Source of the DNA: Escherichia coli
GTDB taxonomy: Bacteria > Pseudomonadota > Gammaproteobacteria > Enterobacterales > Enterobacteriaceae
DNA length: 64,000 nt
Reading direction: 5' to 3' (one strand)
NCBI RefSeq assembly: GCF_044647545.1
Contig: NZ_CP172818.1
A program made the translations under genes and the position numbers. A model generated the notes under the pieces. That model saw only the letters and a program-made list of their open reading frames with translations. It ran no database searches and was not told where the DNA came from. The first letter of the stretch is position 1, and each line of letters opens with the position of its first letter. This document shows positions 3,663 through 52,412 of this stretch, one piece after another.

Positions 3663-5984
3663 ATGATGAATGATTCGTTCTGCCGCATTATTGCGGGTGA
3701 AATTCAGGCGCGCCCGGAACAGGTTGACGCTGCCGTTCGCCTGCTTGACGAAGGGAATACCGTGCCGTTTATCGCACGTTATCGTAAGGAAATCACCGGC
3801 GGTCTGGATGACACGCAGCTGCGTAATCTGGAAACGCGTCTGAGCTATCTGCGCGAGCTGGAAGAGAGACGTCAGGCGATCCTCAAGTCCATTTCCGAGC
3901 AAGGCAAACTCACCGATGATCTGGCGAATGCCATCAACGCCACCCTAAGCAAAACCGAACTCGAAGACCTCTACCTGCCCTACAAACCTAAACGCCGCAC
4001 CCGTGGGCAAATCGCCATTGAAGCAGGGCTTGAGCCGTTGGCCGATCTGCTGTGGAGCGATCCGTCACACACGCCAGAAGTCGCCGCTGCACAATATATT
4101 GATGCCGATAAAGGCGTGGCAGATACCAAAGCCGCGCTGGACGGCGCGCGCTATATCCTGATGGAACGGTTTGCCGAAGATGCCGCGCTGCTGGCGAAAG
4201 TGCGTGATTATCTGTGGAAGAACGCGCATTTGGTCTCAACCGTGGTGAATGGTAAAGAAGAGGAAGGGGCGAAATTCCGCGACTATTTCAATCATCACGA
4301 ACCGCTGTCCACGGTGCCTTCTCACCGCGCGCTGGCGATGTTCCGTGGTCGTAACGAAGGCATACTTCAGCTTTCGCTGAATGCCGATCCGCAGTTCGAA
4401 GAGCCGCCAAAAGAGAGCTATTGCGAGCAAATCATCATGGATCACCTTGGCCTGCGCCTGAACAATGCCCCGGCGGATAGCTGGCGCAAAGGTGTGGTGA
4501 GCTGGACGTGGCGCATCAAGGTGTTGATGCATCTGGAAACTGAACTGATGGGCACCGTGCGCGAACGCGCGGAAGATGAAGCAATCAACGTCTTTGCCCG
4601 TAACCTGCACGATCTGCTGATGGCGGCCCCAGCCGGACTGCGTGCAACGATGGGCCTCGATCCGGGTCTGCGTACCGGGGTAAAAGTAGCGGTGGTCGAT
4701 GCAACTGGCAAACTGGTGGCGACCGATACCATTTATCCACATACCGGACAAGCCGCAAAAGCAGCGATGACCGTTGCTGCCCTGTGTGAAAAGCATAACG
4801 TTGAACTGGTGGCGATCGGCAACGGTACAGCTTCCCGCGAAACCGAGCGTTTCTATCTCGACGTGCAGAAGCAGTTCCCGAAAGTGACCGCGCAGAAAGT
4901 GATCGTCAGCGAAGCTGGCGCGTCGGTTTACTCGGCTTCCGAGCTGGCAGCACAGGAGTTCCCGGATCTCGACGTTTCGCTGCGTGGCGCGGTGTCTATC
5001 GCCCGCCGTTTGCAGGATCCGCTGGCGGAGCTGGTGAAAATCGATCCGAAATCTATCGGCGTAGGTCAGTATCAGCATGACGTCAGCCAGACGCAACTGG
5101 CCCGCAAACTGGACGCAGTAGTAGAAGACTGCGTAAACGCCGTTGGCGTCGATCTCAACACCGCTTCTGTTCCGCTGTTAACTCGCGTGGCGGGCCTGAC
5201 GCGCATGATGGCGCAAAACATCGTTGCCTGGCGCGATGAGAACGGTCAGTTCCAGAACCGTCAGCAACTGCTGAAAGTGAGCCGTCTGGGGCCGAAAGCC
5301 TTCGAGCAGTGCGCGGGCTTCTTGCGCATTAACCATGGTGATAACCCGCTGGACGCGTCTACCGTCCACCCGGAAGCCTATCCGGTGGTGGAACGCATTC
5401 TGGCAGCAACACAGCAGGCACTGAAAGATCTGATGGGTAACAGCAGCGAGTTGCGTAACCTGAAAGCGTCTGACTTTACTGATGAAAAATTCGGTGTACC
5501 GACGGTAACTGACATCATCAAAGAGCTGGAAAAACCGGGTCGCGATCCGCGTCCGGAATTTAAAACCGCTCAGTTTGCCGATGGCGTCGAAACGATGAAC
5601 GACCTGCAACCGGGTATGATCCTCGAAGGTGCGGTGACCAACGTCACCAACTTTGGCGCGTTTGTCGATATTGGCGTGCATCAGGACGGCCTGGTTCACA
5701 TCTCTTCATTGTCGAACAAGTTTGTGGAAGATCCGCATACCGTGGTGAAAGCGGGCGATATTGTGAAGGTGAAAGTGCTGGAAGTGGATCTTCAGCGCAA
5801 ACGTATCTCCCTGACTATGCGTCTGGACGAGCAGCCTGGCGAAACCAACGCTCGTCGCGGCGGCGGTAATGAACGTCCGCAGAACAACCGCCCGGCAGCC
5901 AAACCGCGTGGGCGTGAAGCGCAGCCTGCCGGTAATAGCGCGATGATGGATGCGCTGGCGGCGGCAATGGGCAAAAAACGTTAA
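3663..5984 (+). CDS. tex: Tex-like transcription accessory protein with C-terminal S1 domain
   Basis: 773-aa [46 protein letters not shown]...; YqgF/HhH region and C-terminal S1 domain; known as yhgF in E. coli. Confidence 0.93.
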
Positions 5985-47269: not shown

Positions 47270-47359
47270 AAAAGCCAGCACCCGGCTGGCTAAGTAATAC
47301 TGGAAGCAATGTGAGCAATGTCGTGCTTTCAGGTTCTCCGCGAGGGTCTTCCTGATCGC
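47270..47359 (-). ncRNA. ryhB: RyhB small RNA (Fur-repressed, iron-sparing response)
   Basis: Minus strand reads GCGATCAGGAAGACCCTCGCGGAGAACCTGAAAGCACGACATTGCTCACATTGCTTCCAGTATTACTTAGCCAGCCGGGTGCTGGCTTTT, matching the 90-nt RyhB sequence from memory, with its terminator hairpin and U-run; located between yhhX and yhhY as in K-12. Confidence 0.88.
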
Positions 47360-47361
47360 AA

Positions 47362-47386
47362 GACAATAATAATCATTCTCATTCGC
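47362..47386 (-). promoter_or_regulatory. Fur box overlapping the ryhB promoter
   Basis: caataataatcattctcattcgc immediately upstream of the ryhB 5' end; shares the core cattctcatt with the candidate feoA Fur box. Confidence 0.55.
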
Positions 47387-47480
47387 ACTTGTCCAACACT
47401 TTTTGCAAAAAAATGCATTTGACTCGCATTTGAAAGTCAATGATGTTGAAAGGGACATTTACCCCAAAGAGGACAAAGGA

Positions 47481-48305
47481 ATGAGTGAGATAGTAATACG
47501 CCACGCAGAAACACGCGATTACGAGGCCATCAGGCAGATTCACGCCCAGCCGGAGGTGTATTACAACACGCTACAGGTGCCTCATCCTTCAGAACAAATG
47601 TGGCTGGAACGACTCACCGCTCGCCCTGGCATCAAGCAGTTAGTCGCCTGTATTGATGGAATCGTCGTAGGCCATCTCACCATTGACGTGCAACAACGCC
47701 CACGCCGCAGTCATGTTGCCGACTTTGGTATCTGTGTCGACTCCCGTTGGAAGAACCGCGGCGTCGCCAGCGCCCTGATGCGAGAGATGATTGAAATGTG
47801 CGACAACTGGTTGCGGGTAGATCGTATTGAGCTAACGGTGTTCGTCGATAACGCGCCAGCAATTAAGGTCTATAAAAAATTTGGCTTTGAGATTGAAGGG
47901 ACTGGCAAGAAGTACGCGCTGCGTAAGGTGAATCGGGAGATCATGGGGTGCGCAACTTACGATGTGTGGGTAGGTGCTGCGGCTCCTCCGGCCCCGCCCG
48001 CTACGGCGGGCTACGGCGCGCGGCCGCCGCCGCAAACGGCGCCGCACGAATCGGGCCGCGGGGCCGCCTGCCCGCTCCGCGCCCCGGCGGTCCCGCGCAC
48101 GGGCAGGGCACCGCGCGGGGCCAGCGCGGGCGCGCAGCGGTTACGCGACCCCGGGGGGTGCGCGTTCGGTGACGCACGGGCGACGCGGGGGCAGGCCGCG
48201 CACCCGACGGGGGGGACGGGGCGGCCGCGGCCCGCCGGGGCCCAGCGCGACGGGGGGCCCGACGGGCCGGCGGGGCGAGCCCTCACCTACCGGGAGAGGG
48301 CTTAA
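47481..48305 (+). CDS. yhhY: GNAT N-acetyltransferase YhhY with a disrupted 3' end (148 native residues fused to an anomalous Ala/Gly/Arg/Pro-rich tail)
   Basis: MSEIVIRHAETRDYEAIRQIHAQPEVYYNTLQVPHPSEQMW...GTGKKYALR is recognisable as YhhY (about 162 aa in K-12); from 47925 the frame runs into ~80% GC low-complexity sequence and stays open to 48305; the native C-terminus is absent. Confidence 0.6.
   Translation: MSEIVIRHAETRDYEAIRQIHAQPEVYYNTLQVPHPSEQMWLERLTARPGIKQLVACIDGIVVGHLTIDVQQRPRRSHVADFGICVDSRWKNRGVASALMREMIEMCDNWLRVDRIELTVFVDNAPAIKVYKKFGFEIEGTGKKYALRKVNREIMGCATYDVWVGAAAPPAPPATAGYGARPPPQTAPHESGRGAACPLRAPAVPRTGRAPRGASAGAQRLRDPGGCAFGDARATRGQAAHPTGGTGRPRPAGAQRDGGPDGPAGRALTYRERA
47925..48305. 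other. anomalous ~80% GC low-complexity block replacing the yhhY 3' end and the yhhY-ggt spacer
   Basis: About 380 bp dominated by gcg/ggc/ccg repeats; open in several frames on both strands as expected for stop-poor GC-rich sequence; flanking E. coli DNA is about 50% GC. Confidence 0.75.
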
Positions 48306-48309
48306 GATA

Positions 48310-50052
48310 TTAATACCCCGCCGTTAAATCATCCACCGAGCGCGAGTCGGATGCACCGTACAACTCACCATCCGACCCAACCATAATGCTTTGCGTACTG
48401 CCCATCGCCTCTTTCAGCGCCACTTTCTGACCTTTTGCTTCCAGCAGCTTGAGCGTATCCGGGCTAAACCCTTTTTCGACACGCAGCTCGTCCGGCAACC
48501 ACTGATGGTGGAAACGTGGCGCATTGGTCGCTTCGGCGACATTCATACCACAATCGATGCTATTCACCACCATTTGCAGCACGGTAGTGATGATCCAGCT
48601 CCCGCCAGGGCTACCGGTAACCAGCCAGGTTTTACCGTCTTTCACCACAATGGTGGGTGACATCGACGACAGCGGGCGTTTATTCGGCCCGACCGCGTTG
48701 GCGTCACCACCCACCAGCCCGTAAACGTTCGGTACGCCCGGTTTGGCGGAGAAATCATCCATCTGGTTATTGAGCAAAATACCGCTCTCGCCCGCGACAA
48801 TGCCCGTCCCGAAGGTGGTGTTCAGCGTATAGGTCACCGCCACCGCGTTACCGTCTTTATCCACCACTGAGTAATGGGTAGTTTGATTACTCTCATAAGG
48901 CGCAAGCTTGCCGGGGCGAATTTCGCTGGATGGCTTCGCTTTATTGATATCGATTTGATCGGCAATAGATTTGGCATAGGCTTTATTGGTCAGCGCCTGC
49001 CACGGTACTTTGACAAAATCCGGATCGCCAAGATATTCCGAGCGGTCGGCGTAGGCGTATTTCTCAGCTTCTGCCATGATTTGCATCGCGTCGGCACTGC
49101 CAAAGCCGTACTTCTTCATATCGAAGTTTTCCAGGATATTGAGGATCTGCACGATATGAATCCCACCGGAAGATGGCGGTGGCATCGAGTAAACCTGATA
49201 CCCGCGATATTCGCCGCTAATCGGTGTACGTTCGACCGCTTTATACGCCGCTAAATCTTCTTTAGTGATCAAGCCACCGTTTTTCTGCATCTCCTGGGCA
49301 ATCTGTTCCGCTATCGTGCCTTTGTAGAATTCGTCCGGGCCGTTTTCGGCAATCATCTCCAGGCTCTTTGCCAGGTTCGCCTGCACCAGCTTGTCACCCT
49401 TTTTCAGCGGCGCGCCCTCTTTCCAGAAGATAGCCTTGCTGTTTTCGTGATTCGGCAATACTTCGCTACCGTAGGTTTTGAGATCGTCAGCCAACGCGTC
49501 GTTAACGATAAAACCATCGCGTGCCAGTTTAAACGCCGGTTGCACCACTTTGTTCAACGGCATGGTGCCGTACTTCTCCAACGCCAGCGAGAAACCTGCT
49601 ACCGTACCGGGCGTACCAGAAGCCAGATGCGAAGTGAGTGATTTTTTGCTGTCCGGGTTACCCTGATCATCAAGGAACATATCGCGGGTCGCTTTGGCGG
49701 GTGCCATTTCGCGGAAATCGATAGCCGTGGTATTGCCATTTTTCGAGCGGATTAACATAAAACCACCGCCGCCCAGATTCCCCGCCTGCGGATGCGTTAC
49801 CGCCAGCGCGTAGCCCACTGCCACGGCAGCATCAACGGCATTCCCGCCCTCCTTGAGGATATCCACCCCCACCTGAGTGGCAGTAGCATCTACAGACGCC
49901 ACCATCCCCTGTTTCGCGCGTACCGGATGAAAGACATCTTCCTCCACGCCGTAAGAAACAGGAGACGGCGCAGGTGGCGCGGCTACCGTACTAAAACAAC
50001 TTCCTGTGAACAGAGCAGCAATGGCCACCCGGCGTAAAAACGTCGGTTTTAT
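48310..50052 (-). CDS. ggt: gamma-glutamyltranspeptidase (periplasmic)
   Basis: MIKPTFLRRVAIAALFTGSCFSTVAAPPAPSPVSYGVEEDVFHP... (signal peptide); start trimmed to MIKPTF (580 aa). Confidence 0.95.
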   Translation of the reverse strand: MKPTFLRRVAIAALFTGSCFSTVAAPPAPSPVSYGVEEDVFHPVRAKQGMVASVDATATQVGVDILKEGGNAVDAAVAVGYALAVTHPQAGNLGGGGFMLIRSKNGNTTAIDFREMAPAKATRDMFLDDQGNPDSKKSLTSHLASGTPGTVAGFSLALEKYGTMPLNKVVQPAFKLARDGFIVNDALADDLKTYGSEVLPNHENSKAIFWKEGAPLKKGDKLVQANLAKSLEMIAENGPDEFYKGTIAEQIAQEMQKNGGLITKEDLAAYKAVERTPISGEYRGYQVYSMPPPSSGGIHIVQILNILENFDMKKYGFGSADAMQIMAEAEKYAYADRSEYLGDPDFVKVPWQALTNKAYAKSIADQIDINKAKPSSEIRPGKLAPYESNQTTHYSVVDKDGNAVAVTYTLNTTFGTGIVAGESGILLNNQMDDFSAKPGVPNVYGLVGGDANAVGPNKRPLSSMSPTIVVKDGKTWLVTGSPGGSWIITTVLQMVVNSIDCGMNVAEATNAPRFHHQWLPDELRVEKGFSPDTLKLLEAKGQKVALKEAMGSTQSIMVGSDGELYGASDSRSVDDLTAGY

Positions 50053-50174
50053 CATCGTTATTCTCCAGAGATTAAGGGGCAACCCCAGCTAAGCCTGGTA
50101 TATAACTCTGAATTAATCCTGATGATTGCAGGAAAGGAGTAAACTTAAAGAATATCTTCAGAGGAGGATACGCG

Positions 50175-50615
50175 ATGAAACGACTTCTGATTCTTACGGC
50201 ACTCCTGCCGTTTGTCGGCTTTGCACAGCCCATTAATACTCTGAATAACCCTAACCAGCCGGGGTATCAGATCCCCAGTCAGCAGCGGATGCAAACCCAA
50301 ATGCAAACGCAGCAAATCCAGCAAAAAGGGATGCTGAATCAGCAACTGAAAACGCAAACTCAGTTGCAACAACAGCATTTAGAAAACCAGATAAACAATA
50401 ATTCTCAGCGGGTGTTGCAGTCACAGCCGGGGGAGCGAAATCCCGCCCGGCAGCAAATGCTGCCCAACACCAATGGCGGGATGTTAAACGGCAACCGTAA
50501 TCCGGATAGTTCGTTGAATCAGCAGCATATGTTGCCGGAGAGGAGAAACGGCGACATGCTGAATCAACCCGGCACGCCGCAGCCTGATATACCGTTGAAA
50601 ACTATTGGGCCGTAA
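50175..50615 (+). CDS. yhhA: secreted Gln-rich protein YhhA (DUF2756)
   Basis: 146-aa [53 protein letters not shown]... (signal peptide, Q-rich). Confidence 0.85.
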
Positions 50616-51345
50616 AGTTCGGACCAATCACATCAATCGCATCGGTACAGATGCAATCCACGCCCCAGCGCAGCAACTCTGCCGCGCGCTGGGGTTTATT
50701 GACGGTATAAACCAGAATTCGCAGTCCTGCATCTTTCAACTGCATCACTCGCGCTTTATCGAGCAACTTATGATTGAGATGAATAGAGACGCAGCCCAGT
50801 CGCGCGGTCAATTCTCGCCAGTCGTCGCGCCACTCATCAAGCAATAAACCGCGCGGCAGTTCTGGTACTGCTTGTTGCGCGGCGTCTAAAGCATCAATCT
50901 CAAACGATGACAGCAGCGGCGGCGTCATTCCGGCCCACAGTTCGCGTGCCGCCAGCGCCACCATTTTGCCCGTTAATGGCCCGGTGCCAGTGGTGGGTTT
51001 GATTTCGATATTCGCCATCATCCCGTGTTTGCGACAACGTTCCGCCACCTGCGAAAGCAACGGCAGTGGCTCACCTTTAAACGCTTTGCTGTACCAACTG
51101 CCTGCATCCACGCGCAGTAAATCCTGCCAGTTCAGATCGCCCGCGACGCCCCAGCCGTTGCTGGTGCGTTCAAGATTGTCGTCATGGAGCAGGAAGATTT
51201 CGCCATCTTTCGATAACTTCGCGTCAAATTCGATCATCTTATGACCGTATTTTGCCCCGACGTCGATTGCTGCCAGGGTGTTCTCCGGGGCCAGTTTACC
51301 GCCGCCACGATGGGCGACGATGCGGGGATAAGGCCAGTTACTCAT
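50602..51345 (-). CDS. ugpQ: glycerophosphodiester phosphodiesterase (cytoplasmic)
   Basis: 247-aa [51 protein letters not shown]...; last gene of the ugp operon. Confidence 0.93.
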
Positions 51346-52412
51346 ACTCGTTGTCCTGTTTCACCATCAAAAAGATGTAGCTGATTTTCCGGCAGATGCA
51401 GCCACAGCGTGCTGCCTGCCGTCGGGCGCTCCTGATGTGCCAGTCGCACCACCAGCTTCTGTTCGCCCCAGCGTCCGTGCGCCAGGTTATCTGCGCCGAG
51501 GATCTCCAGCGTGTCCATCACCAGCGGCACACCACCTTCTGCCTGCGAGCTTAGCGCTATATGTTCCGGGCGAATGCCGAGGGTCATTTTACGCCCGGCA
51601 TACTGACGGTAGCCACCGTTTAGCGGCAGCGTAATACAACCATCCAGTTCGAAATGCGTACCTTCGTTATTCACGCGACCTGCCAGCAGGTTCATCGCCG
51701 GGCTGCCGATAAAACTCGCTACAAACAGGCTGGCGGGCTTTTCGTAGACTTCCACTGGCGTGCCAATCTGTTCGGCAACGCCGCCGTTCATCACCATTAC
51801 TCGCTGGGCGAGCGTCATCGCCTCAACCTGATCGTGAGTAACGTAGAGTGAAGTCGTTTTCAGGCGACGGTGCAGTTGTTGCAGTTCAAGACGCATCTGC
51901 ACACGCAGCTTGGCATCGAGGTTAGAGAGCGGCTCATCAAACAGGAACACTGCCGGCTCACGCACAATCGCACGCCCCATCGCCACACGCTGACGCTGAC
52001 CGCCAGATAGCTCACGCGGGCGGCGCTTAAGCAGGCCGTCCAGCTCCAGAATGCGCGCCGCTTCTTTAACACGTTCGGCAATTTGTTGCTTGCCCATGCC
52101 GCGAATTTTCAGCCCCCACGCCATGTTCTCCTCTACGCTCATATGCGGATAGAGCGCGTAGTTCTGAAACACCATCGCAATCCCGCGATCTTTCGGCTCC
52201 ATTTCGGTGACACGCTTGCGGTCGATCCAGATATCGCCCGTCGTTACCCGCTCCAGTCCGGCCACCATTCGCAATAACGTCGATTTCCCGCAGCCAGACG
52301 GCCCGACCATCACGATAAATTCGCCATCCGCCACATCAAGGGTCAGCGGTTTAATGACCTGGGTTTTGCCATCCCAGCTTTTGGTTACTGCCTGTAATTT
52401 CAGTCCTGCCAT
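51342..52412 (-). CDS. ugpC: sn-glycerol-3-phosphate ABC transporter, ATP-binding subunit
   Basis: [49 protein letters not shown]... (Walker A, LSGGQRQR signature); start trimmed to MAGLK. Confidence 0.95.

Follow-up and report, generated by a model that had tools for sequence, protein, structure and literature searches.

In the window, by which we mean the whole stretch of Escherichia coli DNA that was analysed (64,000 nucleotides, contig NZ_CP172818.1), the open reading frame of interest is yhhA. It is a native core gene of E. coli that is already catalogued, and it is not anomalous. Its product matches the Pfam family PF10956 (DUF2756) along the whole profile (positions 1-105 of 105), with 202.9 bits against a cut-off of 21 and an E value of 1.1e-60. 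The match to the NCBIfam equivalog NF007675 (PRK10350) is similarly complete, covering positions 1-145 of 145 with 264.1 bits (cut-off 136). At the DNA level, the copy in the window is 100% identical to RefSeq loci annotated as “yhhA: DUF2756 family protein”. An earlier note, made from the letters of this DNA, had named the frame as YhhA (DUF2756), placed it next to ggt and described its start and stop as clean. The family matches and the identical annotated loci bear out the name, ggt is indeed the divergent neighbour, and the frame runs exactly from its ATG to its TAA (Table 1). Both peptide strings quoted in that note are present in the translation.

We found yhhA in 5424 of the 5426 complete E. 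coli genomes, on the chromosome every time, in agreement with the earlier description of the frame as real and native. Nearly all genomes carry a single copy, with a median of 1 and at most 2 places per genome. Three matches on plasmids were set aside, as they turned out to be mis-filed chromosomes. The allele of the window shows no difference from the known YhhA/DUF2756 proteins, being the common form of 146 amino acids in the same ggt-yhhA-ugpQ neighbourhood. A search of a phage collection for YhhA homologues returned 0 matches, even at an E value of 10.

Table 1. Genes, signals and protein segments at the yhhA locus, in window coordinates
Feature	Position	Strand	Description and basis
ggt	48310..50055	-	divergent from yhhA, 119-bp spacer
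Block TAAGCCTGGT in the ggt-yhhA spacer	50090..50099		invariant across four genera, surrounding spacer varies
Candidate -10 element, TAAACT then TAA	50140..50148	+	sigma-S-like, about 35 nt upstream of the ATG; from conservation
Shine-Dalgarno, GAGGAGG	50161..50167	+	7 nt before the ATG; strong, read from sequence
yhhA coding sequence, DUF2756 family	50175..50615	+	146 codons plus TAA, ATG start
Predicted Sec-type signal peptide, residues 1-17	50175..50225	+	cut before Q18 (VGFA/QP); from rule-based anatomy
Pro/Asn-rich N-terminal segment of the mature protein, residues 18-33	50226..50273	+	conserved; coil of low pLDDT in the AlphaFold2 (AF2) model
Gln-rich predicted single alpha-helix, residues 34-82	50274..50420	+	DUF2756 core (NPSQQRMQxQMxxQQxQQ ... 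QRVLQ); from AF2 and conservation
Disordered C-terminal tail, residues 83-146	50421..50612	+	pLDDT below 50; motif conservation
3'-end convergent overlap of yhhA (+) and ugpQ (-)	50602..50615		14 nt; from the ORF map of the window
ugpQ	50602..51345	-	convergent with yhhA

Genomic neighbourhood of yhhA

On its 3' side, yhhA overlaps ugpQ tail to tail, and no terminator-like site was found 3' of yhhA. With a convergent overlap and no such structure, transcription of yhhA must run antisense into ugpQ. PMC12288877 names yhhA-ugpQ among its candidate excludons. Inside ugpQ itself, a FliA SELEX peak has been reported (PMC5493296).

An Rfam scan of positions 47300-51400 gave nothing in or near yhhA, and only RyhB (RF00057) far upstream. 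This is a partial match at 47300..47330 on the minus strand (E value of 4.5e-6), partial because the scan began at 47300. We take its position to be that of ryhB upstream of yhhY.

The most unusual thing near yhhA is a segment of 344 bp at 47934..48277, with 83% GC and up to 85% in 200-bp windows. It replaces 63 bp of native sequence, made up of 35 nt from the 3' end of yhhY and 28 nt from the yhhY-ggt spacer, and fuses the yhhY acetyltransferase frame to a long tail rich in Ala, Pro, Arg and Gly. The segment is present in 0 of the 5426 complete E. coli genomes, with flanks matching at 99.7%. It had no match among the PLSDB plasmids, and one 31-nt probe from it had no exact match in IMG/VR. 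The segment may be a foreign insertion, an assembly chimera or an engineered insert.

As for other genomes, the order of divergent ggt and yhhA followed by convergent ugpQ is kept in Buttiauxella, in the Enterobacteriaceae isolate G50 and in a metagenomic enterobacterium. Several loci depart from it. In Erwinia psidii (RHHM01000009.1), ggt and a short yhhA homologue are separated by an inserted pair of genes for a type III effector and a chaperone (AvrPphF-ORF-2 and CesT families); the insert occupies 3680..4750 of our locus extract L004. Genes gained by horizontal transfer can evidently integrate in the ggt-yhhA spacer. In one further contig (L006) ggt is absent from its slot and the linkage to ugpQ persists, and one yhhA homologue (L007) lies in a different neighbourhood. 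Since the linkage to ggt is broken in several lineages, we regard it as positional and not obligatory.

Finally, a prophage-like region encodes a DUF2756 homologue of 87 amino acids, located between the large terminase and the capsid/portal genes and in the opposite orientation. This copy looks like a moron. It had no match in the INPHARED phage collection. On locus extract L005 (JGI 3300012995 Ga0157361_1000017) it spans 5001..5264, with a TAAACT -10-like element of its own.

Composition, predicted structure and conservation

The N-terminus of YhhA is built like a Sec/SPase-I signal peptide, as the earlier note had proposed. By rule-based prediction there is an n-region with K2 and R3, and a hydrophobic core of 13 residues from L4 to F16 (GRAVY of +1.63), within the 10-15 residues expected of an h-region. 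Around the predicted cut we found P12 at -6, the small residues G15 at -3 and A17 at -1, and Q18 at +1, with no Pro at +1 and no lipobox Cys. The triplet A17-Q18-P19 is invariant in 21 YhhA homologues. More broadly, position -1 of the homologues remains Ala (or Gly), as judged with a rough regular expression that puts some of the cut sites in the wrong place.

The predicted mature chain has 129 amino acids and is extremely polar (GRAVY of -1.40), with 22.5% Q, 14.0% N and 10.9% P, and is devoid of C, F and W. Its Q+N content of 36% makes it, by a wide margin, the most Q/N-rich among the 71 ORFs of at least 120 amino acids in the window. Given the composition of the ORFs of the window, the probability of at least 29 Q in 129 residues is 7e-13, so the impression of an unusual composition was correct. 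The earlier description as Q/N-rich and repetitive is right in its first part and has to be qualified in its second: a tandem-repeat search with TRF found no array within yhhA, and its direct repeats are short (9-24 nt), imperfect and built of CAA/CAG-rich codons.

In terms of structure, the AlphaFold2 model, built on the family alignment, contains one helix of roughly 49 residues (34-82, pLDDT 72-86) and is otherwise coil with pLDDT below 50-60, for a pTM of 0.24. A matching helix is modelled at residues 34-83 of the short Erwinia form. A pLDDT of 72-86 for a lone helix is only suggestive. The charge-hydropathy plot, examined for 41 family members, places every one of them on its disordered side, and mature YhhA lies in the “natively unfolded” zone. 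The picture is one of a highly polar, largely disordered chain, predicted to contain one conditionally stable helix. The helix is not amphipathic, as its hydrophobic moment at 100 degrees (0.112) is close to that of shuffled sequences (mean of 0.116). A coiled coil was also rejected, with at best 5 of 11 hydrophobic residues in a+d positions and no heptad register. Neither feature therefore marks an obvious interface on the helix. A sequence-profile search of the PDB found no related solved structure, only a chance match to RIB43A (E value of 2.1). In Pfam, at an E value of 1 or below, neither LTXXQ nor any other further family was found for YhhA.

The search of the protein database clustered at 90% identity returned 467 clusters for YhhA, and PF10956 is carried by all of the 120 matches listed. 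Among these, the named clusters come from Escherichia (including E. albertii), Salmonella, Citrobacter, Enterobacter, Yokenella, Phytobacter, Buttiauxella and Dryocola; with the short form in Erwinia, conservation in related Enterobacteriaceae, on which the earlier claim depended, was found. A profile search of 1.84 billion representatives at 50% identity gave only 79 DUF2756 proteins, and the family is therefore narrow. Its remotest members have 80-110 amino acids, and the one that is named comes from Erwinia psidii.

The alignment of 21 YhhA sequences, spanning several genera, contains 33 invariant columns. In the segment 18-33 the invariant residues are N21, N24, N25, P26, N27, P29 and Y31. 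Homologues at about 35% identity keep the signal peptide, the N-P-S helix cap, the motif QQRMQxQMxxQQxQQ and a terminal QRVxxSQPG, and are devoid of the C-terminal tail. In these distant homologues conservation is complete at M43 and at least 90% at P34, R38, Q47 and Q50. The mature chain of YhhA contains 7 Met. Three of them (M43, M53 and M119) do not vary, and three more (M39, M103 and M128) reach a conservation of at least 90%; H118, adjoining M119, is nearly invariant. The tail is specific to Enterobacteriaceae and missing from the short Erwinia-type homologues. It carries the conserved sequences QQMLP, GGMLN, QHMLP and GDMLN, with five conserved xMLN/xMLP motifs in total outside the helix, and a conserved C-terminus. 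Buttiauxella, whose yhhA and ugpQ genes are free of overlap, shares the conserved C-terminus, and the overlap therefore does not explain this conservation.

Between genera the synonymous sites are saturated (pS of 0.73-0.90). At residues 18-85 we obtained pN of 0.09-0.21 between genera, and dN/dS of about 0.06-0.08 where computable. The signal peptide has a dN/dS of 0.15-0.5, above that of the mature part; signal peptides typically evolve fast. Judged from these substitution rates, YhhA is under strong purifying selection and is not drifting low-complexity sequence.

Rare alleles of 96-165 amino acids exist in E. coli and E. albertii, resulting from in-frame duplications or deletions in the Q-rich region, at 50291..50536. 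In E. coli, lengths of 96, 108, 121, 125, 129, 136, 155, 156, 157 and 163 amino acids were found, nearly all of them in clusters of one sequence. Imperfect direct repeats flank the deletions, one of which (63 nt) lies between the repeats D3; the E. albertii allele of 122 amino acids derives from a deletion of 72 nt between the repeats D1. From its codon-level repetitiveness, yhhA is a minor hotspot for slippage-type indels, with the 146-residue form predominating. Singleton indel alleles beside one dominant form fit selection for the full-length protein. Natural alleles without much of the helix exist, and the helix is therefore not indispensable for viability.

Upstream region and expression

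The Shine-Dalgarno sequence of yhhA retains its GGAGG core in homologous loci. Upstream of it, the block GTAAACTTA, which covers the -10 region, is invariant in 4 genera. The hexamer TAAACT or TACACT occurs at -29 to -36 from the start codon in 7 of 8 sequences (the window and 6 of 7 homologous loci), and these 7 include the Erwinia and prophage copies. A scan for sigma-70 consensus promoters between 49950 and 50800 found none. The -10 region used by sigma-S is TATACT-like, with a downstream TAA and a weak or absent -35. TAAACT followed by TAA resembles such a sigma-S-preferred -10, and we infer from this a promoter role for the element. Further upstream, a regulator may bind the invariant block TAAGCCTGGT, or the block may belong to the promoter of either ggt or yhhA.

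Published data point in the same direction as this element. A SELEX peak of the sigma-S holoenzyme has been reported in the ggt/yhhA spacer, which is divergent, so that the peak could be that of ggt (PMC5493296). Expression of yhhA rises, along with that of rpoS, as cells pass into stationary phase (PMC2241611), and the gene belongs to a multi-stress hub cluster that also includes rpoS (PMC9501238). An inhibitor of LolCDE raises yhhA 5.6-fold (PMC5105897), mild acid induces it (PMC7824302; PMC2270276), and beta-lactams below the MIC raise the amount of YhhA protein (PMC9927464). The protein has been detected in Salmonella (PMC4265081), and a figure of the proteins with the highest abundance in envelope extracts of STEC strains names it in its legend, together with proteins known to be periplasmic (PMC9731836). 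No yhhA entry was found in the supplements of a Salmonella sigma-S proteome (PMC5437024).

Three other reports were set aside. Capture of YhhA with ppApp (bioRxiv 2021.12.15.472736) is likely non-physiological, since the protein is exported. The P97L mutation of yhhA in C41(DE3) was deemed irrelevant by its own authors (PMC4632034). Lastly, the “yhhZ/yhhA operon” of PMC12428005 does not refer to the ggt-yhhA-ugpQ arrangement. The literature we found consists of mentions in omics studies and one preprint naming YhhA as a type III effector, and the earlier wording of “functionally uncharacterised” is still accurate.

Possible functions of YhhA

Taken jointly, the identity of YhhA, its export and its stress regulation are very probably as described above. 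As for what the protein does, our preferred reading is a tentative one: YhhA is possibly an abundant, sigma-S-dependent, non-enzymatic stress protein of the periplasm that acts by binding. Sigma-S would drive yhhA in stationary phase and under stress, and the precursor would be exported by means of its Sec signal peptide. The mature protein would then act stoichiometrically and without catalysis, through physical association in the periplasm. The helix beginning NPSQQRMQxQM and the xMLN/xMLP motifs would serve as binding modules, either folding on contact or acting as short linear motifs, for at least one partner in the envelope, and YhhA would thereby be a small ATP-independent protein of the stationary-phase periplasm, of the holdase, shield or inhibitor type. 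This binding-module mechanism, considered by itself, is somewhat doubtful.

Some known systems share features with YhhA. Spy, CpxP and ZraP (LTXXQ proteins), Ivy and MliC are likewise small, Sec-exported, helical or partly disordered and induced by envelope stress, and occur in the same proteomic lists. They differ from YhhA in sequence, as we found no relationship to them, no LTXXQ and no relative in the PDB. The Rz-like i-spanins (PHROG 4297 / 312) resemble DUF2756 proteins in having an N-terminal hydrophobic segment followed by a long polar periplasmic helix. The PHROG search gave weak “Rz-like spanin” matches for 3 of 24 DUF2756 members (best E value of 3e-4), with the prophage homologue at 3.8e-4, and no match for the YhhA of the window. 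In contrast to these spanins, YhhA has a predicted cleavable signal peptide instead of a membrane anchor, and neither an o-spanin partner nor a lysis cassette. We rejected a spanin relationship, given a probability of 0.1% in hhalign against lambda Rz and a chromosomal context without lysis genes.

The main rival to action through binding modules is a non-specific “molecular shield” of the hydrophilin kind, in which YhhA would contribute bulk hydration, crowding and anti-aggregation in the periplasm with no specific partner. Hydrophilins are reportedly defined (Garay-Arroyo and colleagues, 2000) by Gly above 6% and a hydrophilicity index above 1, and the mature E. coli YhhA exceeds both, with 7.0% Gly and an index of 1.40. 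Its sigma-S/stress type of expression, the predicted disorder of all family members and the tolerance of natural alleles to length variation also speak for a shield. Like the hydrophilins and small sigma-S stress proteins YciG, YmdF and YjbJ, it is small and of high hydrophilicity, is predicted to be disordered, and responds to stationary phase or stress with induction. It is unlike them in being periplasmic, in being rich in Q/N rather than in Gly, charged residues or KGG repeats, and in combining strongly conserved positions with a long predicted helix. Moreover, Gly makes up only 0-5% in the majority of distant homologues, and this threshold is therefore not exceeded across the family. The low dN/dS and a conservation by position that goes beyond what composition needs (the 33 invariant columns, and M43 invariant at about 35% identity) argue against the shield, which we consider rather unlikely. 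Because conservation is position-specific, binding modules are favoured over a purely compositional shield. The conserved Met residues could also suggest a sacrificial antioxidant against HOCl or H2O2, repaired by MsrPQ, or a periplasmic buffer of Cu(I) or other metals: a disordered periplasmic chain would leave Met and His exposed, the invariant and highly conserved Met together with H118 would suit this role, and yhhA is induced by oxidative and multi-stress conditions. Met is however not significantly enriched (5.4% vs 2.9%, P = 0.08), known Cu motifs are absent, with MxxM occurring once and no MxM or HxxM arrays, and the short homologues keep only 2-4 Met. We hold such a role to be improbable.

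The remaining explanations concern particular partners or settings. A Q/N-rich protein might assemble in a prion-like manner, or tune curli (CsgA/CsgB) as an amyloid modulator in the periplasm. The curli subunits CsgA and CsgB are Q/N-rich and sigma-S-dependent, and YhhA shares with them Sec export and the stationary-phase programme. The best stretch of 80 residues in YhhA (21-100) contains 36 Q+N, in excess of the 30 or more per 80 residues that Michelitsch and Weissman (2000) are said to have used. Nevertheless, the chain has 11% Pro and interspersed charges, its Q-rich part is predicted as helix and not beta, neither Pfam nor the PDB shows similarity to curlin repeats, and yhhA is not linked to the csg genes, which makes amyloid modulation very unlikely. 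The position of the gene brings to mind the periplasmic gamma-glutamyltranspeptidase (GGT), of which YhhA could be a partner or substrate, for instance as a Gln-rich nitrogen reserve or a regulator. Both products are periplasmic, and the two genes stay divergent, about 120 bp apart, in Escherichia, Buttiauxella, isolate G50 and the metagenomic enterobacterium. Against this, the linkage is broken in L006, Erwinia psidii, L007 and the prophage, and GGT acts on gamma-glutamyl compounds and free glutamine, its substrates excluding the Gln side chains bound in peptides; a dependence on GGT is highly improbable. Finally, a preprint calls YhhA a validated type III effector of EPEC that mimics substrates of the ATM kinase (bioRxiv 10.1101/364117). 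Such an effector would imitate S/TQ sites in host cells, and YhhA does contain many TQ and QT dipeptides; these are nonetheless expected at 22% Q and 6% T. Its N-terminus is a canonical and conserved Sec signal peptide, predicted to be cleaved, and the promoter features and expression are of the sigma-S/stress type. With presence in 5424 of 5426 genomes the gene shows no restriction to a pathotype, and it occupies a conserved locus of housekeeping character and is found in many environmental genera that are not pathogenic. The claim of the preprint is not supported, the assumption behind it is weakened by this analysis, and we regard a role as type III effector as extremely improbable.

Returning to binding as the preferred mode of action, a broader version can be proposed for the family, and we consider it unlikely as a whole. 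DUF2756 would be a distinct Enterobacterales class of exported, conditionally folding single-helix proteins, whose invariant NPSQQRMQxQM helix start and xMLN/xMLP motifs would dock, in stationary phase, on one particular machine or enzyme of the envelope, which would make them sigma-S-controlled periplasmic regulators or inhibitors. For prophages, acquiring a copy as a moron would have been a way of manipulating that target too.

For the genome at hand, yhhA is a correctly recognised member of the “y-ome”, and it confirms that the window is an ordinary E. coli chromosome at yhhA, and nothing more. Followed up, YhhA would be a tractable case of a rare class, that of strongly conserved, abundant and disordered periplasmic proteins of the general stress response. 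Its partner, if found, would inform how the envelope is protected without ATP.
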